DNA of 64,000 bases, from positions 1-64,000 of the IMG/VR virus record IMGVR_UViG_3300035204_001027, one strand, 5' to 3'. Made by a program: the position numbers and the translations under genes. Shown piece by piece: positions 1,751 to 42,134 of this stretch; position 1 is the stretch's first letter; each line of letters starts with the position of its first letter. Under the pieces are notes generated by a model, which was not told the DNA's origin, did not search any database, and was given only the letters and a program-made list of their open reading frames with translations. This DNA is from a virus.

Positions 1751-3238
1751 ATGCAAAAATGGTATGGACAAAATTATGTGGGTAAAAAGTTTTATGGTCC
1801 ATTTGATAAAACTTTTGAAAACATTAACCCTTCTACAGAGGAATCCTTAGGTAGCTTTCCCCTGACTTCTCCGAGCGAGGTGGGAGAAGTAATTCTTATT
1901 GCTAGAAAATCATTTAAGAAATGGAGAAAACTAAGTAGACTTGCTCGGGCAGAATATTTTTACAAAATTTCTAAAATCATAGAAGAAAGAAGAGATGAGC
2001 TCGCTAGGGTTATTTCTCTAGAGACAGGAAAAAATTTTAACGAAAGCATAGCGGAGGTTAATGAGGCTCTTCACATGGCGCAATTCGCTTTTGGTAGCGG
2101 CAGAACACCAGTAGGGGAGGCGGTTGCTTCAGAAATCGCAGACAAGGATAGCTACATGTTAAGAAAGCCGAAGGGCGTAATTGCTATTGTTTCTCCTTTC
2201 AATTTTCCAGTTGCGATTGGAGCTTTTTGGTGCGCTGCCCCAGCGTTAGTAGAGGGTAATACCGTTATTTTAAAACCTTCTGAGGATGCCCCCATGTCTA
2301 GTCAGATTTGTGCGGAGATATTTCATGAGGCTGGAATTCCCGAGGGGGTATTTAATTTAATCCATGGAGATGGAAAAACGGGAGACGCTTTGGTGCGCGG
2401 AGACGTGGACCATATTTGTTTCACTGGTAGCGCAGAAGTAGGTCAGCACATTCGTAAAGTTGCGGCAGAAAGTTGGCATAAAACGACCTCTTGCGAAATG
2501 GGGAGCAAATCTGCTGTTATAGTCTTTGATGATGCGACCATGTCCTTAGCTTTAGATTCTTGTCTTGCGAGCGCGTTTAAGCTTTCGGGTCAAAGATGCG
2601 TTTCTGCTAGCAGATTAATCATTCAAAGGGAGATCGTAGATGAATTTGCGCAGAGATTTGTAGATAAAGCGAAATGCATTAAGTCTGGGAATCCATTCCT
2701 TGACGAGAATACAATCAATGAAGATATGTATTATGGCCCTATTATCAATGAGCAAGGCTTAGAGAAGGTTGTCCAGAACAACAATGATGTTTTTAATGAT
2801 TCCGAGGCTATTCCCCTTTTGCGAGGTAAGAGGCCCGAGGGTAAGGGGTTCTTCATTTCTCCCACCGTCTACAAAACAGAATGGAGGGATGTTTCGTATT
2901 TAAAAAACGAAGTATTCGGCCCGCACGTTGCCATTATTCCTTTTGATACCTTGGAAGATGCAATACGTATATATAATGATACTGATTATGGGCTAGCGGT
3001 TGGGGTTTTGACGAATGATTTCAGAAAAGCGAGGATCATGCGAGACGAATGCGAGGCGGGAATGATCTACTGGAATGGCGGGTCTATTGCTGCTGAGTCT
3101 CATCTCGCTTTTGGCGGGGTTAAAAAATCTGGAAATGGATTTCCTAGTGCGGCTAGAACCTTCAGAGCAGTAACTCATGAAGTAAGCTGGACGGTTAATC
3201 ACGCAGACGATCTCTCCTTTCCTCAAGGCATGAAATGA
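1751..3238 (+). CDS. NAD-dependent aldehyde dehydrogenase
   Basis: PFNFP, LKPSE, FTGS, EMGSK, GQRC catalytic Cys, EVFGP, FGGVKKSG. Confidence 0.95.
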   Translation: MQKWYGQNYVGKKFYGPFDKTFENINPSTEESLGSFPLTSPSEVGEVILIARKSFKKWRKLSRLARAEYFYKISKIIEERRDELARVISLETGKNFNESIAEVNEALHMAQFAFGSGRTPVGEAVASEIADKDSYMLRKPKGVIAIVSPFNFPVAIGAFWCAAPALVEGNTVILKPSEDAPMSSQICAEIFHEAGIPEGVFNLIHGDGKTGDALVRGDVDHICFTGSAEVGQHIRKVAAESWHKTTSCEMGSKSAVIVFDDATMSLALDSCLASAFKLSGQRCVSASRLIIQREIVDEFAQRFVDKAKCIKSGNPFLDENTINEDMYYGPIINEQGLEKVVQNNNDVFNDSEAIPLLRGKRPEGKGFFISPTVYKTEWRDVSYLKNEVFGPHVAIIPFDTLEDAIRIYNDTDYGLAVGVLTNDFRKARIMRDECEAGMIYWNGGSIAAESHLAFGGVKKSGNGFPSAARTFRAVTHEVSWTVNHADDLSFPQGMK

Positions 3239-24093: not shown

Positions 24094-26331
24094 ATGAAAC
24101 CTATCGAAAAGAAACAAACCATGCAGAGTAGCGGAGTTACTAAATCCGTTAGCTTTGGAATTAAGGCATCTGGCCTCCACCACATTTTAGGCATCTTACG
24201 GAATCAGTTGTATTCTGACAAGGTGCTTGCAGTATTGCGAGAGTATTCTTGTAATGCAGTTGATGCTCACACAGAAATAGGCGAAGGGGATACTCCCATT
24301 GAAGTTACCTTGCCAAGTAAACTTTCACCAGAGTTCAGAGTGCGCGATTTTGGCCCCGCTTTAAGCGACGAGGAAATTCAAGATGTTTATGCGTTCTATG
24401 GGGAATCTACGAAGCGAAATTCTAACGACCAGATTGGTATGCTTGGAATCGGTTCTAAAGCGGCGTTTGCTTATGGAGACAATTTTGTAATTAACTCTTA
24501 CATTGATGGAGTAAAACATTCATACAATGCTTATATTGACCCATCTCAAATTGGTCAAATTAGCAAACTGGGCGAAGAAAGTACCACAGAAAAAAATGGT
24601 ATTGAAATTGTTGTACCAGTAAATGACTCTGATGTTCAAGAGTTTGCGGATAAGGCGAAAAATTTATTTGAATGGTTCAAAGTAAGACCTAAAGTTCATG
24701 GTCAATCTTGGACATGGGATAAAAGGGAAACTCTTTTCGAGGGAGAAAATTGGAAGTGGCTCAATGCCAATCAAGATAGATGGAGTAGTGATAGAGGTGT
24801 AGCAACCATTGTGATGGGAAACATCGGATACCCTATTGACCAGTATGCTCTCAATTTGCAGGACGATGATGCTGAATTAAATTCCCTTTTGAATAAGAAT
24901 TTGGTTATTGAAGCCGAAATCGGTGATTTAGAAATCTCTGCTTCCCGTGAGTCGTTGCAGTTCACTGATTATACTCGTTCTCAAATCGTAAAGAGGTTAC
25001 GTCAAGTTCAAGGCGAATTGATTGGCGAGTTAACAACTAGATTTAATGCGTCAAAAACTCTGTACGATGCCAAATGTCTGTATGGAAGCATCTTTGACTA
25101 TGGAAGCGGGTTATATTCATTGGCTGAAGTGGTTAGAGGCAAGCTAAAGTATAAAGGCAAGGTCGTAGACTCTGATTCTTTTAGCATTTACAACACATCG
25201 GGTATTGTTTTGCACAAGTTTAAGAAGTCGCATAGGGGATATAGGCGTTTCAAGCCAGAGGAAATGTCCTCATTGACCTGCGATATGAATACTGTTGTGG
25301 TTCACAATGATTTGGGGCATAGGCGCGGTATCCTTGGTAGAATTTTGCCTCTTGCCGAAACGGATGGCAAGGAAGTTTATTTGATTCAAGCTGAAGATAA
25401 GAAGTCTTGGGATAAATTCGTCAAAGATGAGAAGTTTGATGCGCCCATGACAGAACTTTCCAGTTTACCCAAGCACTCATTGTCAGAGTTCAATGGCTAT
25501 ACAAATGCGACAGGAGGCTCTACGGGAGACAAAAATCCGAAGCATACAGCAAAGGTATTTTCCTTGGATTGGGATGGCATAAAAAGTCACAGGTACGGTT
25601 ATGGGAATAACAAGTCGAAGTTTTGGAAAACTGCTGACGTTGATATTGCCAATGAGTCTGGAATTTATGTAATCATTGATAAATTTGAGATTCTAGCTAA
25701 CAATCCTGACGCAGAATCATATCAGTGGCGAGAAGGGAGTGTGCATCCAACTTCAATGAGCCAAGTAAAAGAACTCTTGGAGCAAGCGGGAATTGCAGTT
25801 CCAAAAGTGATAGCCGTTAAGGTCGCTAAACGAAAATCTATTGAAGGTAAGGATGGTTGGACTCCTCTGTTTGATTGGTTGAAGAATACAATCATAGCCA
25901 AGATGGAAGAAGAGGATATTACTCAAAAGTTTACTGACCGTAATGCTGCTTCTCTTGCCACTTCTGGTTCTAGTTGGCATTCATCGCCATCGAATGAACA
26001 AACAGCAGATGTATTGTCGCATATTCAATTACCAGAAATTAGTCTATACGCTCAATATCACGCCAAGGTATTGGAGATGCTGAATGATGCAGAGAAGAAA
26101 AAGATTGACGCTTTCATCCAGATGACTAGAGAGTTTGGGGTTAAAATTGGAGAGGACTATAAACCCAAATACGACCTACCGAAGCTCAAGGCCAAGGTAG
26201 AAGCCCGATACACCGTGCTAGACATGATGAGTTGTTGGGGAGGATGGAGATGGGACAAAGCCAATGGCGAAAAAATTGCGAACTATATCAATGTGATAGA
26301 TGTTTGCACGGCTACAAAGGATTCTGCGTAG
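24094..26331 (+). CDS. rIIA: rIIA-like protein (GHKL ATPase N-terminus)
   Basis: LYSDKVLAVLREYSCNAVDAH, RDFG, STKRNSN, GMLGIGSK; followed by rIIB-like gene. Confidence 0.82.
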   Translation: MKPIEKKQTMQSSGVTKSVSFGIKASGLHHILGILRNQLYSDKVLAVLREYSCNAVDAHTEIGEGDTPIEVTLPSKLSPEFRVRDFGPALSDEEIQDVYAFYGESTKRNSNDQIGMLGIGSKAAFAYGDNFVINSYIDGVKHSYNAYIDPSQIGQISKLGEESTTEKNGIEIVVPVNDSDVQEFADKAKNLFEWFKVRPKVHGQSWTWDKRETLFEGENWKWLNANQDRWSSDRGVATIVMGNIGYPIDQYALNLQDDDAELNSLLNKNLVIEAEIGDLEISASRESLQFTDYTRSQIVKRLRQVQGELIGELTTRFNASKTLYDAKCLYGSIFDYGSGLYSLAEVVRGKLKYKGKVVDSDSFSIYNTSGIVLHKFKKSHRGYRRFKPEEMSSLTCDMNTVVVHNDLGHRRGILGRILPLAETDGKEVYLIQAEDKKSWDKFVKDEKFDAPMTELSSLPKHSLSEFNGYTNATGGSTGDKNPKHTAKVFSLDWDGIKSHRYGYGNNKSKFWKTADVDIANESGIYVIIDKFEILANNPDAESYQWREGSVHPTSMSQVKELLEQAGIAVPKVIAVKVAKRKSIEGKDGWTPLFDWLKNTIIAKMEEEDITQKFTDRNAASLATSGSSWHSSPSNEQTADVLSHIQLPEISLYAQYHAKVLEMLNDAEKKKIDAFIQMTREFGVKIGEDYKPKYDLPKLKAKVEARYTVLDMMSCWGGWRWDKANGEKIANYINVIDVCTATKDSA

Positions 26332-32456: not shown

Positions 32457-32618
32457 ATGACAGTTAAAGAAAAGAAGAAGTTGGACTTTGTGTTGTTCAT
32501 GCAAGTGGTTGCTGGCACACGCAACGTGAAACCTATTGACCGTTTGATGGCTCTCGCAAAAGATGTTGTCGCTATCCGTGACGGTGAAGAACCTAAAGAA
32601 TCGAAGGAGCTTATTTAA
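32457..32618 (+). CDS. 53-aa hypothetical protein (not in ORF track)
   Basis: ATG 7 nt after promoter 32421-32449. Confidence 0.65.
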   Translation: MTVKEKKKLDFVLFMQVVAGTRNVKPIDRLMALAKDVVAIRDGEEPKESKELI

Positions 32619-32619
32619 C

Positions 32620-33084
32620 ATGGAAAATCATTGGAACAAAAAAGTAGAATTACTCTATCGTAACTGTGGCACAAACTGGGCTGTGTTTATTCGTGGCGCA
32701 GCCGATGACGTAGAACAGGAGTTTTATGGTATGTATAACCACGGAGCGACTGACGGAGAGATTCAATGGCAAACACCAGAGAACGCTTATTTTTGGACTA
32801 CTAGAGAAAAGCTCGAAAAGTGTCTCACGAACCGAGCATTGTTCTGGCTATTGAATCAAGACGGACACGAAGAATCTGACGAGGAAGAATTGCTACCCGT
32901 AGCGAAACAGATGGCTGAAACTCTTATGGGTGAGATGGTTCAACAGTCGAACTTGATGACCTTTGGGAATACTTATGACACTTATGAACTTGGTGAAGTG
33001 TCAGCGGAATCGAGCGAGGAGCATATCAACAACGGCCCATCTACCGTGCAAGTTAACATCAGCAGATTAATGGGATCTCTATAA
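32620..33084 (+). CDS. acidic hypothetical protein
   Basis: AAGGAG upstream of ATG 32620. Confidence 0.7.
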   Translation: MENHWNKKVELLYRNCGTNWAVFIRGAADDVEQEFYGMYNHGATDGEIQWQTPENAYFWTTREKLEKCLTNRALFWLLNQDGHEESDEEELLPVAKQMAETLMGEMVQQSNLMTFGNTYDTYELGEVSAESSEEHINNGPSTVQVNISRLMGSL

Positions 33085-33965: not shown

Positions 33966-34039
33966 AGTGGTGTGGCCAAGTGGTAAGGCGTTGCTCTGCA
34001 AAAGCGAGATCGTGGGTTCGACTCCCACCACCACTTCCA
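33966..34039 (+). tRNA. tRNA-Cys(GCA)
   Basis: acceptor AGTGGTG/CACCACT, anticodon arm TTGCT-CTGCAAA-AGCGA, T-arm GTGGG-TTCGACT-CCCAC, U73, encoded CCA. Confidence 0.96.
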
Positions 34040-34923: not shown

Positions 34924-35227
34924 TTTAAGCTGACGACGGTTGGCTTAAGGGAATGGCTGAATATCCCTCCAACATAAGGGGAAAGGCATGGGGCCACCTG
35001 AGAGAGTGTTATCGCATGACTCTTGTGGTTTTAGTAGACTGGTTAACTTGAACTGTATTGTGTGCTGGTCTTGATGGTAATGCAGCAATCCATCTTCCCA
35101 TTAATTTATAGGGTGAAGTAACAAACGTCCGCAAAGAGGAAACGGCCCAATAAACAAAGTGCAAGGAGTTGTGGCGTAACGGTGCATCGTGCCACGTAAA
35201 GCACTTAAAAAATTCTCCCTTTTTTTT
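34924..35227 (+). ncRNA. putative structured non-coding RNA
   Basis: serial hairpins, no + strand ORF in track, ends in T-run. Confidence 0.4.
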
Positions 35228-35531
35228 GTCGATCATAAATACCTTTTTTTGATCGGCAATTTTTTTTGTCGATCATTCGTGAGCGGCTAATTCTTTTGCC
35301 AATCAATTATGGCAATTAATGAGCGACAAAGAGGGTAATTGTTTTGCAAGATAATACTGTTTTCGTGGGATATCTCCTCCAATAATTTCGTAAATAGCAC
35401 GAATTTCACATCGGAGAAATACCCCCTTTTTACGAAACTTAAACGTGATACTCATCCGGCGGCCCGGGGCCTGAAAAAAAATGAAAAAACCGCTTGACAA
35501 ACCCTGATTTGTGTGGTATATTATATCCATA

Positions 35532-35837
35532 ATGAACGACAAAATAGAAAACCTAATAAACAACCACATCACTCGACTTCAGCAGAACATCCTTGATCGT
35601 GACCACTCGGTCATGGCGTGTGGTGCTCGCAGCAATCCATTCCACGCTCAACTCGATGAGATTGACCTCAAGAATATAGCCTCTCTCAGAGAGGGTCGCA
35701 TCCCACAGTACAGCGACCACATGGCTTGCCTCGTTGGTGATGGCCCACATGATATGAGCGAGTTTCGTGACCTGACTTACGAGAAGGAGCATGAGGCTGC
35801 TGGCCTCTATGAGGGGGTTGAGCCGAGCCTAACTTAA
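35532..35837 (+). CDS. hypothetical protein
   Basis: start corrected to first ATG after promoter. Confidence 0.7.
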   Translation: MNDKIENLINNHITRLQQNILDRDHSVMACGARSNPFHAQLDEIDLKNIASLREGRIPQYSDHMACLVGDGPHDMSEFRDLTYEKEHEAAGLYEGVEPSLT

Positions 35838-35960
35838 TAGGCTACCCAGCCTAGCCGCCAAAGCTGCGCTTGAGACACAGCGCGACGAGGGGCTAGGCTC
35901 AGGGCCCGGGCCCTGAAGAAAGTGCTTGACAAACACCTGTTTATGTGTTACATTATAACA

Positions 35961-36089
35961 ATGAAACGACGAATCAAAGCACGGGTCAACAGAGATGGCC
36001 TGATGGGCAGCGCGTCTCGTGTCCATCGTGTGAGGAAGGGCAAGGGCTCTTATTGTCGTAAGTCTAAACACAAGAAAAATGAGTGGTAA
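35961..36089 (+). CDS. arfA: ArfA-like alternative ribosome-rescue peptide, 42 aa (not in ORF track)
   Basis: RVHRVRKGKGSYCRKSKH matches ArfA signature KGKGSYxRKxKH; own promoter. Confidence 0.75.
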   Translation: MKRRIKARVNRDGLMGSASRVHRVRKGKGSYCRKSKHKKNEW

Positions 36090-36255
36090 CTATTATGATG
36101 ATGAAGGTTACTTGGGCGATCACTATGTCGGTCAAAGTAAGTATGACTATGTGCTCAAGGAGTGCAAGCGGTGTGGTCAGAAGGTAGACATGAGTTCTGA
36201 TCATGCTATCTGTAATTCATGTGCCGATGCAATGGAGCGAGGGTGGGAGTATTGA
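36079..36255 (+). CDS. 58-aa zinc-finger protein (not in ORF track)
   Basis: CKRC...CNSC; overlaps arfA-like stop. Confidence 0.65.
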   Translation: MSGNYYDDEGYLGDHYVGQSKYDYVLKECKRCGQKVDMSSDHAICNSCADAMERGWEY

Positions 36256-36311
36256 TACTCTTAACCCTATTAATAGTAATAACTATTTGGTTGATGGTTA
36301 AAAGATACTGA
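36252..36311 (+). CDS. 19-aa hydrophobic micropeptide
   Basis: TTG start overlapping upstream TGA; MILLTLLIVITIWLMVKRY. Confidence 0.5.
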   Translation: MILLTLLIVITIWLMVKRY

Positions 36312-36380
36312 GGGCCCCGGCCCTGAAAAAAGTTAAAAAAACTGCTTGACAAACAGCCATTTGTGTGTTATATTATACCA

Positions 36381-36587
36381 ATGATAAGCGAGATGGATAA
36401 GTTTAAAGAAGATGCAGCTTTCAAGCTGTTTGGTCGCAGCCGCATACTTGCCATCGCTGGCAACGGGTGCGTGAAGTGTGGCGAGAGCGCGGTTGATTTC
36501 CGTGACGAACTCTCCCGCAAGGAGTACGGCATCTCTGGCTTGTGCCAGTGCTGCCAAGACAGCGTCTTTGGTGTGGAGGAGGACTAA
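36381..36587 (+). CDS. zinc-finger protein
   Basis: CVKC...FRDELSRKEYGISGLCQCCQD. Confidence 0.75.
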   Translation: MISEMDKFKEDAAFKLFGRSRILAIAGNGCVKCGESAVDFRDELSRKEYGISGLCQCCQDSVFGVEED

Positions 36588-36893
36588 TGAGATTAAACGA
36601 GATTAGCCCAGAGAGCATGGGCATGAGGCCCACGGACAAGCCTAAATTGATAGACGCTACGCCTACGCCTATGCATGACCAAAAGGATTGGATTCAGGAC
36701 AGTGATGGGACATGGGTATGTGATTGGTACATGGAGGACGGGTATGATGTCAGATGCAGAGATTAGATTAAGTGAGTTATTAGATAGCTTTAATAGTGAA
36801 GAAGAATGGCTAGCATATAGGGAATCTTATCCCTTAATACCAATAAGCTCAAATGATGATGTCCCTTGGAATTATGATATGAAAATCTTCTGA
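36587..36893 (+). other. two small acidic genes (36587-36766, about 36744-36893)
   Basis: coupled ORFs ending at next palindrome. Confidence 0.55.
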
Positions 36894-36962
36894 GGCCCCG
36901 GGCCTGAAAAAAAGTAAAAAAACCCCTTGACAAGAGGCTGTTTCTGTGGTATATTATGTCAT

Positions 36963-37208
36963 ATGAAAAACGATACAGTAACTCAAACCATCACCGAAGC
37001 CCAAGTCACCCAGCGCAAGCTGAATGAGATCAACAACAATTTCAACCTCACCGATGAGTACGTCGAGCATTTGGATCAAGCCGTGACTCAACTACTAGCT
37101 AACAAGGAACGCCTGAATAAGGCTCTAGGCATCCTCAACAAGCTGCCTTCTTCCTTGGAGGATAAGTTCGTCAAGGTCAATCCTAACCAGCAAGAACGCC
37201 GCTGGTAG
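36963..37208 (+). CDS. coiled-coil hypothetical protein
   Basis: start after promoter 36927. Confidence 0.7.
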   Translation: MKNDTVTQTITEAQVTQRKLNEINNNFNLTDEYVEHLDQAVTQLLANKERLNKALGILNKLPSSLEDKFVKVNPNQQERRW

Positions 37209-37302
37209 GCCTTGGCCCTTCGGGGCCCGGGCCCTGAAAAAAAAGTAAAAAAAGTGCCCTCCAGCCCTTGACAAGGGGTCATTTGTGTGCTATATTATGG
37301 TA

Positions 37303-37584
37303 ATGAAAAACGATACTCCAACTTACACCCTCTGGAACGGCCCTACTCTAATCGACACTTTTGAGCATAACCGTGAGGGCTATGACTCTGCTCTAGAGCG
37401 GGCTTTCGACCTTGGCCCTAGTGCCTCCATCTACTCCACTCGTGATGACCTTGTGTGGTCTGCCGAGGCAGATGAGCCAAATGAGCCTAGCGATGCGTGG
37501 CACGATGCCGACGCGCTTGCCTCTGCTGGATGGGGTACTGATGAGGACTACGGCTGCTATGGCCCAGAGGATTGCTGGGAATAG
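37303..37584 (+). CDS. highly acidic hypothetical protein
   Basis: C-terminal DADALASAGWGTDEDYG. Confidence 0.72.
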   Translation: MKNDTPTYTLWNGPTLIDTFEHNREGYDSALERAFDLGPSASIYSTRDDLVWSAEADEPNEPSDAWHDADALASAGWGTDEDYGCYGPEDCWE

Positions 37585-37686
37585 CAATCTCAGGCCCCGG
37601 GCTGTCAAGCAAAAAAAGTTATTCACAATCGAAGAAAGTGCCTTGACAAACGGGCGATTCTGTGGTATATTATAAGTATAACAACG

Positions 37687-38808
37687 ATGAAAAACTACAC
37701 ACCGACAATCGCCCAGAGAACTAGGATGATGACCGCTATTGAAAGCGAGCTAGAACGAGAGAATCCGAATTATGCACATTTGACTATTACCTTTGGTATG
37801 ATGCAGCACGCTGCTGATGAAGGTACAGGAGGAGACCATTACGACTATTTAGAGAGATTGTGGAATATGTTCAATCTCGAAAAAAGATGAAAAAAGTGCT
37901 TGACAAACGGTCGATTATGTGGTATATTTAGGTATTAAGATTATGATAAACGAGACAGAACTATTACTGAATCAAGAGGTAGAAGTGACATTCCAACGAA
38001 GCCAACTTTGGGGCAAGCGTGGTCACGTTCTAGGCATTATGGCTGATGGTCGTACATTAGATATTGAGCTACATGGTGGCAAACGGGTATTCCTAGATGT
38101 CACTTTTGTGGATGAGATTCGTGAACGTACACAGTTCGCCAAGACCGAGCAAAGCCTCGGCCCAATCGCTAACCATCTCATTAAGGATACGCTTTAATTA
38201 TGAAACTCATTGTAAAGGAAATGCCCGCAAGGCAAAAGTTCTATCAGTTAGTAGATGCTGCGTGTTACGCTAGAATGGGATGCTCCATGCATGACCTACC
38301 TGATTTCCCATATAGTGATTACTATGATGATGAGATTATGTCTCATGAGGAAATGGTTAATGCAGCAGATATGTGCATTGAGGATCTAGTGCTTGAGCTT
38401 AAGAATGATAACGAAGGATATTGGTTATGAGGAATTGGCTTGATATGTATGGTGGGTGGCTTGCGATAGTTCTCTATTTCATTCTAACAACTATTATTTG
38501 GAAATGGTAAAAAAACAAAAAGAACAAAAGCCTGTAATGGCTGAATTAGTACGCGTGTTAAAAGATAAGCCTAAAGGTCTTACTCTTAACGAAGTCAAAG
38601 GCAAGGGCTTGCAACTACCTTCTGGCCCTGCTCTAATCAATGGACAATGGACTTGGTAATTATGAATGAAGAATATGCAAAACATCTAATGAAAGAATAT
38701 AAAGAAGAAAGCCCATTTGAATTATGGGTGTGGTTCGTTGCTGCTCAATTGCTTTTCGGTATTATACTTATAGGCGTAATAGGTCTTTGTATGTGGATGG
38801 CTTCTTAA
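37687..38808 (+). other. small genes 37687-37890, 37943-38197, 38200-38430, 38427-38510, 38504-38659, 38662-38808
   Basis: two promoters, coupled ORFs, two encode single TM peptides. Confidence 0.6.
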
Positions 38809-40600: not shown

Positions 40601-41368
40601 ATGCCGAGAAGAAAGAAAAAAGATGAATTAGCGAAGGAAGAAGCGATAAAGGAAATAGAAGAAGCTTTAACACCTGAATGGTCGAATCCAAACCCGATCA
40701 AGAGTTTAATAAAACTTAAAAATTTTACTTGGACTAAAAAACAAAAAGACTTTTTTAGAATAGCTCTTCACCCAGATACTAAAATAATGTTTGTCAATGG
40801 GCCAGCTGGAACTAGTAAAACTTTTCTATCCACATATTGCGGTTTACAATTACTCAATATGAAAGCGGTTTCAGATATAATGTACCTTAGATCTGCTGTG
40901 GAATCTTCCGATAGGAGCTTGGGTTTTCTACCGGGATCGGCTGACGACAAATTAAAATTCTACAATTTGCCCTTCTTAGACAAATTAGATGAATTACTAG
41001 TAAATACGCGGCCAGAAAAACTTGAAGAACAAAAAAGAGTAAGTATGTTTCCTGTGAATTTCGCAAGAGGGATGAATTGGATATCAAAATGCATAATTCT
41101 CGATGAATCTCAAAACTGCACGGAGAAAGAAATCACAACCGTCTTAACTAGAATGGGTAAAGGTAGTAGAGCGTTCGTTTTAGCAGACCCCATGCAAACA
41201 GATATAAGAACAGAAAGCAAGCAGGGGTCTTTTGAGAAAATGGTATCTACATTTAATGACCAAGAAAGTAGAGACAAGGGGATATATACCTTCACATTTG
41301 ATGAAGATGACATTATGAGGTCAGAATTAATAAAATTTTTAATAAAAAGACTAAATTCTGTAAGATAA
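40601..41368 (+). CDS. phoH: PhoH family ATPase
   Basis: GPAGTSKT, LGFLPG, ARGMN, ILDESQN, LTRMG, QTD, DIMRS. Confidence 0.92.
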   Translation: MPRRKKKDELAKEEAIKEIEEALTPEWSNPNPIKSLIKLKNFTWTKKQKDFFRIALHPDTKIMFVNGPAGTSKTFLSTYCGLQLLNMKAVSDIMYLRSAVESSDRSLGFLPGSADDKLKFYNLPFLDKLDELLVNTRPEKLEEQKRVSMFPVNFARGMNWISKCIILDESQNCTEKEITTVLTRMGKGSRAFVLADPMQTDIRTESKQGSFEKMVSTFNDQESRDKGIYTFTFDEDDIMRSELIKFLIKRLNSVR

Positions 41369-41387
41369 TAAGGAGAAGTAATACAAA

Positions 41388-42134
41388 ATGAGTGAAGAAA
41401 AAAAATCGAAAGCAGAGCTAGCCGCTGAAATTGCCGCAAAAGAAGCCGAAACTCGGAAATCTTTAGCAGAAGCAGCAAAAATCGAAGCGGAGACCGAAAA
41501 AGTAAAAGCAGAAGCTGGGAAAGCGCAACTTGAGTATCACGCCGAGCACCGAAAAAGAGAAAAAGAAATGGCAACGGACGAAGAAAATCATTTATACAGG
41601 TTTTCTAAAGATGTAAATCATAATTCCGTTACAGCTTGCATGAGCAAATTGACACAATGGCATAGGCAAGATCCTAAATGCGAAATAGAAATCGTTTTCT
41701 CTTCTCCCGGGGGGAGTATTATCGATGGATTTGAATTATTTGACTTCATTCAAGAGCTTAGGGTCTCTCATAGAGTAACGACGGGCTCTTTAGGCATGGC
41801 TGCTTCTATGGCGGGTATTTTGCTCCAAGCTGGAACCCATAGGTGGATTGGTCACCAAGCATGGTTAATGATCCACAGAGCGGCATTTGGGGCCATTGGG
41901 AAGACGTTTGAAGTAGAAGACGAAGTTAAATTAGTAAAAAGAATTGAACAAAGAATTGTAGATATCTTCACATCGAGATCAAAATTAACAAATCAAAAAA
42001 TTAAAAGAAATTGGGATCGTAAAGATTGGTGGATTGATGCAGATGAATGTTTGGATCTTGGACTCGTCGACGAAGTAAGGGCTATGATGCCAGAACACCA
42101 CTTAAGCAGTAAAAAGAAAAAAAGAAAAAAATAA
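41388..42134 (+). CDS. ClpP-like serine protease with N-terminal coiled coil
   Basis: SSPGGS, GMAASMAG catalytic Ser, LMIH, DWWIDADECLDLGLVD. Confidence 0.88.
   Translation: MSEEKKSKAELAAEIAAKEAETRKSLAEAAKIEAETEKVKAEAGKAQLEYHAEHRKREKEMATDEENHLYRFSKDVNHNSVTACMSKLTQWHRQDPKCEIEIVFSSPGGSIIDGFELFDFIQELRVSHRVTTGSLGMAASMAGILLQAGTHRWIGHQAWLMIHRAAFGAIGKTFEVEDEVKLVKRIEQRIVDIFTSRSKLTNQKIKRNWDRKDWWIDADECLDLGLVDEVRAMMPEHHLSSKKKKRKK

Follow-up and report, generated by a model that had tools for sequence, protein, structure and literature searches.

A short ArfA-like gene at the head of a predicted early transcription unit in a lineage of large marine phages

INTRODUCTION

Does a marine phage encode its own version of the bacterial ribosome-rescue factor ArfA, and, if so, would the peptide free stalled ribosomes as bacterial ArfA does? 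The question was raised by a first-pass annotation of a 64,000-nucleotide stretch of viral DNA (positions 1 to 64,000 of IMG/VR record IMGVR_UViG_3300035204_001027; here called the window), which picked out a 42-codon open reading frame (ORF) with an ArfA-type motif. The source is a linear IMG/VR virus record of 95.5 kb, with a completeness of ~50% by CheckV.

Escherichia coli ArfA (YhdL; Pfam PF03889; structures 5MDV, 5MGP, 5U4I and 5H5U) is ordered on the ribosome only. Its minidomain residues that activate RF2 include Ile11, and Pro23 lies at the decoding centre. Proteobacterial arfA is typically expressed from a non-stop mRNA, generated either by RNase III cleavage of a 3' hairpin or by a terminator inside the ORF, and the product has a destabilising hydrophobic tail; the outcome is tmRNA-dependent control. 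A truncated ArfA protein is active without these tmRNA-control features. On the ribosome, residues 1-25 of E. coli ArfA form a minidomain whose Leu19, Leu24 and Phe25 grip Trp319 in the switch loop of RF2. Ala18 is packed in the minidomain core, Ala18 and Phe25 are both part of this RF2-activating unit, and residues 25-29 add a strand to an RF2 sheet (PMC5378476).

RESULTS

An ArfA-like ORF directly behind a consensus promoter

The 42-aa peptide is encoded at window positions 35961-36086 on the plus strand and is followed by a TAA stop codon at 36087-36089; the KGKGSYxRKxKH motif and the normal stop soon after it are as first described. The span originally given to the gene, 35926-36089, covers the promoter plus the ORF: 35926 belongs to the -35 box and the ORF itself starts at 35961. 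Within the peptide, the segment KGKGSYCRKSKH corresponds to residues 34-45 of E. coli ArfA. The core of eight positions, KGKGS[YF]xR, was seen once in the six frames of the window, against 0.0005 occurrences expected from composition. The gene and the features around it are:

35848 to 35899, plus strand: outer 9-bp stem (35848-35856 with 35891-35899), 100% complementary, with smaller GC stems inside
35899 to 35916: perfect 18-nt palindrome, TCAGGGCCC followed by GGGCCCTGA; then an A-rich stretch, then the promoter
35926 to 35954, plus strand: extended -10 sigma-70-type promoter (TTGACA, 17 nt, TG-n-TACATT), 10 of 12 consensus positions
35961 to 36089, plus strand: ArfA-like gene, 42 codons, ATG start, TAA stop at 36087-36089, no Shine-Dalgarno sequence
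36079 to 36255, plus strand: zinc-ribbon ORF, 58 aa (CxxC...CxxC), overlapping the end of the ArfA-like gene by 11 nt
36311 to 36324: short GC palindrome (AGGGCC CC GGCCCT) that closes the ArfA-like unit; the next promoter runs from 36346

The palindrome at 35899-35916, which had also been noticed in the first pass, is either a hairpin of terminator type, though with no U tract, or a protein-binding dyad; no T-run terminator was called on the plus strand. The outer stem lies where the upstream cassette (ORF 35532-35837) ends.

Only 6 nt separate the -10 hexamer from the ATG of the ArfA-like gene, so that the usual start site would be the A of the ATG and the mRNA is predicted to be leaderless. 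The window has at least 17 near-identical promoters (TTGAC., a 17-18-nt spacer and a -10 that is mostly TATATT), each with the ATG of an ORF 5-9 nt further on. Such promoters, again without a Shine-Dalgarno sequence, span window positions 7543-39760 (e.g. 33093, 34087, 35494, 35926, 36346, 37268 and 39723). The arfA-like genes of divergent relatives (loci L003-L015, described below) have the same layout of -10 hexamer, 6-7 nt and ATG. Given this spacing in the window and in its relatives, the first cistrons of early units in this phage group appear to be leaderless, and the ArfA-like gene is apparently the leaderless first cistron of one such early transcript.

It does not have this transcript to itself, as the phrase 'own early cassette' in the first-pass annotation implied, because the zinc-ribbon ORF overlaps the end of the gene on the same transcript. 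Since the zinc-ribbon ORF starts with an ATG within the final codons of the ArfA-like gene, the two are predicted to be co-transcribed and are probably translationally coupled. This zinc-ribbon partner recurs beside an arfA-like gene only in one near-identical phage, L002.

The ORF is a conserved gene

In a word-indexed search of 5.8 billion protein clusters, at least 86 marine metagenomic proteins (Tara, JGI and ENA), 39-74 aa long, matched at E <= 5e-5, and many homologues had been named 'stalled ribosome alternative rescue factor ArfA' by JGI. The exact window protein was missing among the matches from a 15-billion-protein collection, where the best match was 93% identical. An exhaustive profile search of 1.84 billion representatives at 50% identity gave 78 clusters, 51 of them at E <= 1e-10. 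Homologues are carried on contigs as long as ~191 kb; P0082, for instance, is on one of 191.6 kb.

Members of the clade are 39-50 aa long and each has its own stop codon. An alignment of 32 members gives the consensus MKxKxIKARVNxxGxMGSASREHKVKKGKGSFxRxxKHKK and has 16 invariant columns, 11 of which fall within residues 6-20; the invariant part is not low-complexity. Over nine distinct DNA copies from viral contigs, the median pS was 0.72 (near saturation) compared with a pN of 0.18. The sister phage L002 encodes an identical peptide (100%), although identity in the gene just upstream is only 44%. The ArfA-like ORF is a real gene under strong purifying selection.

An apparent 136-aa read-through form at locus L005 was rejected: a frameshift at a run of nine A (L005:556-575) fuses the next gene in frame, and with eight A the peptide ends ...KHQKKNW-stop, matching its relatives. 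The ninth A is probably a homopolymer sequencing error. Separately, the module ..RVNxxGxMGSASxxHxxKKGKGS.. is embedded in three larger predicted proteins, P0240 (121 aa), P0283 (148 aa) and P0254 (532 aa), which are either real fusions or gene-calling artefacts. Two of the three share an N-terminal domain (MNNPS...GDxRMMPHF) plus a C-terminal extension, and one is a 532-aa acidic protein with the module at its end.

The channel-binding half is homologous to ArfA

The window peptide matched the Pfam ArfA profile with E 2.1e-5 and 24.3 bits, 1.2 bits under the curated cut-off of 25.5 bits, over profile positions 25-44 only, which is the channel-binding half. Among the 32 clade members, 25 matched ArfA at E <= 0.001 (best 4.5e-7) and no other family was matched; several homologues, 74-83% identical to the window peptide, bear a precomputed PF03889 assignment. 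When a profile of the clade was run against 177,635 PDB sequences, the only chains at E <= 0.01 were of ArfA (six distinct sequences, E ~0.002), with the next match at E ~0.9.

We also aligned the viral alignment with 15 bacterial ArfAs using hhalign, which returned 95.6% probability and E 1e-8 over 48 columns. The bacterial set comprised six enterobacterial sequences and nine diverse ones from genome searches, the latter being all the usable copies from a sampling of 300 genomes of a class and 150 of an order; a search with E. coli ArfA returned mostly enterobacterial sequences. BLASTP against E. coli ArfA (MG1655 record) gave 12 identities in 18 positions over ArfA 28-45, and in the ESM Atlas ArfA was found in 30 of the 30 nearest clusters. 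The window peptide had no match in NCBIfam, and in PHROGs gave weak matches alone, to families of unknown function. The membership of the ArfA family originally proposed from the motif is thus borne out by the HMM search, albeit at a score just below the cut-off, and the profile-profile and PDB profile searches agree. On sequence grounds, the homology of the C-terminal half of the phage peptide to ArfA is secure.

The peptide ends beyond the shortest active ArfA truncation

In the Lys/Arg-rich C-terminal segment, K26-G-K-G-S30 is followed by YCRKSKHKKNEW. At an offset of 8, the last residue of the peptide corresponds to E. coli ArfA residue 50, beyond Asn47. For E. coli ArfA, a cut at Asn47 gives the shortest active truncation, and a cut after Met40 is inactive (PMC5378476).

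A hydrophobic tail was found in none of the 32 viral clade members, whilst bacterial ArfAs have tails ending in AA, LAA and the like. The fold of the phage mRNA is not exceptional (z -1.26), in contrast to the long 3' hairpin of folded E. coli arfA. With its own TAA stop, an end near residue 50, no 3' hairpin and no tail, the phage gene does resemble the truncated active form that lacks the tmRNA-control tail, as had been suggested. The combination of own stop, no hairpin and no degron-like tail also implies that synthesis would not be switched off by an active tmRNA system.

The N-terminal half is distinctive

The N-terminal half carries the clade-specific motif KARVNxxGxMGSASRxH, with invariant K6, A7, R8, V9, G13, M15, G16, S17 and R20, and aligns weakly with bacterial ArfA. 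The hhalign and MAFFT alignments, which have low confidence here, pair Ala7, invariant in the viral clade, with Ala18, and the hydrophobic residue 14 (L/F/Y) with Phe25. The clade has no equivalents of E. coli ArfA residues 1-11. An insertion of 3-5 residues (MGS/A) follows viral residue 14, where ArfA 25-29 pair with the RF2 beta-sheet, again in a low-confidence alignment. A canonical metagenomic ArfA, P0288, has LKAAV in the stretch around Ala18 and forms a bridge between IKARV and IEALL. The RF2-specific patch (Leu19, Leu24 and Phe25) has no confident mapping onto the clade. Taken together, the correspondence with the ArfA minidomain is suggestive.

Comparison with known rescue factors

Like bacterial ArfA, the phage peptide is small, has the basic channel segment KGKGS[YF]xRKxKH and an N-terminal half of similar length, and shows a tentative I-K/E-A-x-hydrophobic match around Ala18. 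It differs in its length (42 aa, compared with 72 aa encoded and 52-55 aa mature for E. coli ArfA), its MGSAS insertion, its own stop, the lack of an RNase III site and its predicted leaderless mRNA.

Two ArfA genes in other phages have been reported. In Pelagibacter phage HTVC027P (MN698241), gp30 bears the ArfA domain of Pfam, and its expression is high at both early and late stages of SAR11 infection (PMC12753301), and g10 of Citromicrobium phage vB_CbaS-RXM (OL963731) is annotated as ArfA (PMC8953757). These two products and the window peptide are all small, phage-encoded and marked by a K-G-[KR]-G-S-[YF] motif. Gp30 also ends soon after the motif, with no tail; g10 sits among small early-type genes but, unlike the window peptide, keeps a hydrophobic tail. 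Both are longer (58-60 aa), have a bacterial-type middle region before the motif (TPKYKSQ and NPAFRQR, respectively), lack the KARVNxxGxMGSASR half and are only 26-28% identical to the window peptide. The HTVC027P and RXM genes and the window clade appear to be independent acquisitions. The hosts of both phages are Alphaproteobacteria (PMC12753301, PMC8953757), and so lie outside the reported range of bacterial ArfA, which is Gammaproteobacteria, some Betaproteobacteria and a few Bacillus species (PMC11633108).

In size and unregulated synthesis, the closest analogue is ArfT of Francisella tularensis, which is ~40 aa long, has its own stop and no RNase III/non-stop control, and works with RF1 or RF2 (PMC6299226). 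By its description, ArfT shares a basic KGKGS-like tail with the clade, but is set apart by having KKGGSTNKK rather than KGKGS and by being reported from Francisella only. BrfA of Bacillus subtilis, likewise small, depends on RF2 for rescue and binds in the vacant mRNA channel (PMC6881298); unlike the phage peptide, it is made from a non-stop mRNA, and it gave no sequence match in any search. Full-text literature searches returned no paper describing the viral mini-ArfA clade. Phage-encoded ArfA is already known as an annotation, and the short viral clade is a distinct variant of it.

Distribution of the clade

A scan of IMG/VR placed the clade at at least 13 viral loci. All the loci listed have other early genes in common with the window (30-78% identity), including a clamp-loader-like AAA protein, DUF932, GP88, a cell-wall hydrolase, an L5 gp82-like protein and others; on the strength of these shared genes, they form one broad lineage of large marine phages. 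For the terminase and GP88-like genes, distant relatives alone were found, spread over phages with a wide variety of hosts.

Among 185,579 prokaryote species genomes, only two contigs carried the clade's two peptide patterns. These two, L015 (CAZKYQ010000085.1) and L016 (CAZYHH010000017.1), are MAG contigs binned as Ignavibacteria and Pseudomonadales, respectively, and carry genes of the phage lineage: L016 has the same matches as IMG/VR locus L013, and L015 carries a phage-lineage gene. Both are probably mis-binned phage contigs; their bins contradict each other, and they give no evidence of host. As far as the collections searched show, the clade appears to be virus-restricted; being on viral contigs and not in Gamma- or Betaproteobacteria, it lies outside the range reported for bacterial ArfA. 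Among 50,697 phage records, a megablast of positions 35000-38000 and a tblastn of the peptide gave one spurious match (E 9), but the low-complexity filter probably masks the basic half of the peptide, and absence from cultured phages is accordingly not proven.

Neighbouring RNAs and genes

Two RNA features lie upstream of the gene:

33966 to 34039: tRNA-Cys, in a separate promoter unit from the ArfA-like gene
34926 to 35104, plus strand: manA RNA (Rfam RF01745), full-length match, 59.7 bits against a gathering score of 55.2, E 1.5e-13

The first-pass annotation had linked the gene to a tRNA-Cys and a 'tRNA-like RNA' within 2 kb. The tRNA-Cys is present, and the tRNA-like region includes the manA RNA match, which sits within an ORF-free region. 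The functional link is unsupported: the tRNA-Cys and the structured RNA, 1-2 kb upstream, belong to other promoter units and do not travel with the arfA-like gene in related phages. No release-factor gene or tmRNA was found in the 95.5-kb record; one tmRNA 'match' was rejected, as it is the tRNA-Cys.

In five other relatives, the gene that directly follows arfA is a homologue of window ORF 32563-33084 (173 aa). In the window itself, unlike these five, the ORF is 3 kb upstream of the ArfA-like gene. The homologues, of ~145 aa and with the motif FWNHGATxxELxW, are at:

L004:3116-3586
L007:3173-3604
L011:3150-3602
L013:3142-3624
L014:3140-3580

We asked whether the product of ORF 32563-33084 might be a nuclease or other partner; it had no Pfam or PHROG match, its AlphaFold model was moderate (pLDDT 73) and Foldseek against the PDB returned nothing at E <= 0.001.

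Comparison of near-identical phages (L002:3100-4500 with window 36079-37600) shows promoter-gene cassettes in permuted order. In L002, the homologue of the 36963 unit precedes the 36381 and 36675 units, and the gene upstream of arfA is swapped for a 44%-identical variant. As judged from this comparison, the early cassettes behave as shuffling modules. Other products encoded in the window, in spans 24094-26331 and 40601-42134, are a RIIA-like protein (PHROG E 8e-112), a PhoH-like ATPase (E 3e-43) and, a good way upstream of the terminase gene (47185), a protease of the ClpP family (E 2e-29). At 1751-3238 there is an unusual auxiliary gene, for an aldehyde dehydrogenase (E 2e-127).

DISCUSSION

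The reading that we favour, and hold to be reasonably probable, is that the phage gene encodes an RF2-recruiting rescue factor of the ArfA type that is made constitutively early in infection; rescue activity of the peptide is likely. On this reading, host RNA polymerase would use the consensus promoter to make an early leaderless mRNA of two or three genes, with the ArfA-like gene first. The basic half of the peptide, R20-K39 (RxHRVRKGKGSYxRKSKHKK), would enter the empty mRNA entry channel of a 70S ribosome stalled at the 3' end of a truncated mRNA, as do ArfA residues 28-47, and the N-terminal half (KARVNxxGxMGSASR) would sit in the A site and hold a host class-I release factor open, most likely RF2. 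The release factor so held would hydrolyse the peptidyl-tRNA and the ribosome would be freed. As the record carries neither release factor nor tmRNA, host factors would do the chemistry. Free of tmRNA control, the peptide would be constitutively active while infection lasts, and would recycle ribosomes left on mRNA that has been degraded or cleaved. The purpose first put forward for the module, in takeover or toxin-based defence, is unsupported.

A further reading, which we consider doubtful, is that the virus-restricted clade forms a type of its own in function, a rescue or counter-defence factor whose N-terminal module engages the release factor or decoding centre differently from bacterial ArfA, for example with RF1 or in hosts that lack ArfA. 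Phages would deploy such a factor constitutively, so that ribosomes stay available when host or defence nucleases cut mRNA. The module, found also inside P0240, P0283 and P0254, may be a portable sensor of the empty mRNA channel.

It is unlikely that the peptide is simply a channel plug, binding the vacant channel of stalled or idle ribosomes without activating a release factor and competing with tmRNA-SmpB, ArfA or ArfB. Such a plug could block the tagging and degradation of phage proteins, or aid the shut-off of host translation. The idea draws on the fact that the channel-binding half alone is clearly ArfA-like, the N-terminal half being different from that of bacterial ArfA; on the behaviour of E. 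coli ArfA A18T, which binds with RF2 yet is catalytically dead, showing that binding and activation are separable (PMC5378476); and on the use of the same channel by SmpB, ArfA and ArfB (PMC6299226). However, the concentration of 11 of the 16 invariant columns in residues 6-20 argues for a specific partner and not for a simple plug. Moreover, locked ribosomes would cost the phage translation capacity, and Ala7 aligns with Ala18, with no larger residue in its place.

Equally improbable, in our estimate, is an ArfT-like factor of relaxed release-factor specificity, which recruits both RF1 and RF2, or only the release factor of a host without an ArfA of its own, and so forms a functionally separate type sharing the KGKGS tail. 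The size of ~40 aa, the own stop and the freedom from RNase III control all recall ArfT (PMC6299226), the RF2-specific patch of Leu19, Leu24 and Phe25 is the part without confident mapping, and other phage ArfAs are found in phages that infect Alphaproteobacteria (PMC12753301, PMC8953757), beyond the reported range of ArfA (PMC11633108). Against it, the homology to ArfA reaches through the N-terminal half, at low confidence, and the series IKARV / LKAAV / IEALL is of an intermediate pattern.

Least probable by far, and largely refuted by conservation, is that the ORF arose by chance or encodes a generic basic peptide that binds nucleic acids and is unconnected with ribosome rescue: a very short, lysine/arginine-rich ORF of basic low complexity can yield spurious profile matches, but the low motif expectation (0.0005), the 78 cluster representatives, the strong purifying selection, an invariant part that is not low-complexity and ArfA as the sole significant family and structure match all speak against it.

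The RF2-recruiting rescue factor introduces no new principle, in that the family, the motif and phage-borne copies are already known at the annotation level. If active, however, the phage peptide would be among the shortest natural ArfA-type factors (39-45 aa), freed from tmRNA control; it would offer a compact tool and a natural experiment on which residues are required for opening a release factor when no stop codon is present. Ribosome rescue would then be something in which an entire lineage of large marine phages invests, implying that non-stop stalling limits phage translation during infection. Alongside the bacterial-type ArfAs of HTVC027P and RXM, the gene suggests that phages have captured or invented ArfA-like genes repeatedly and independently.
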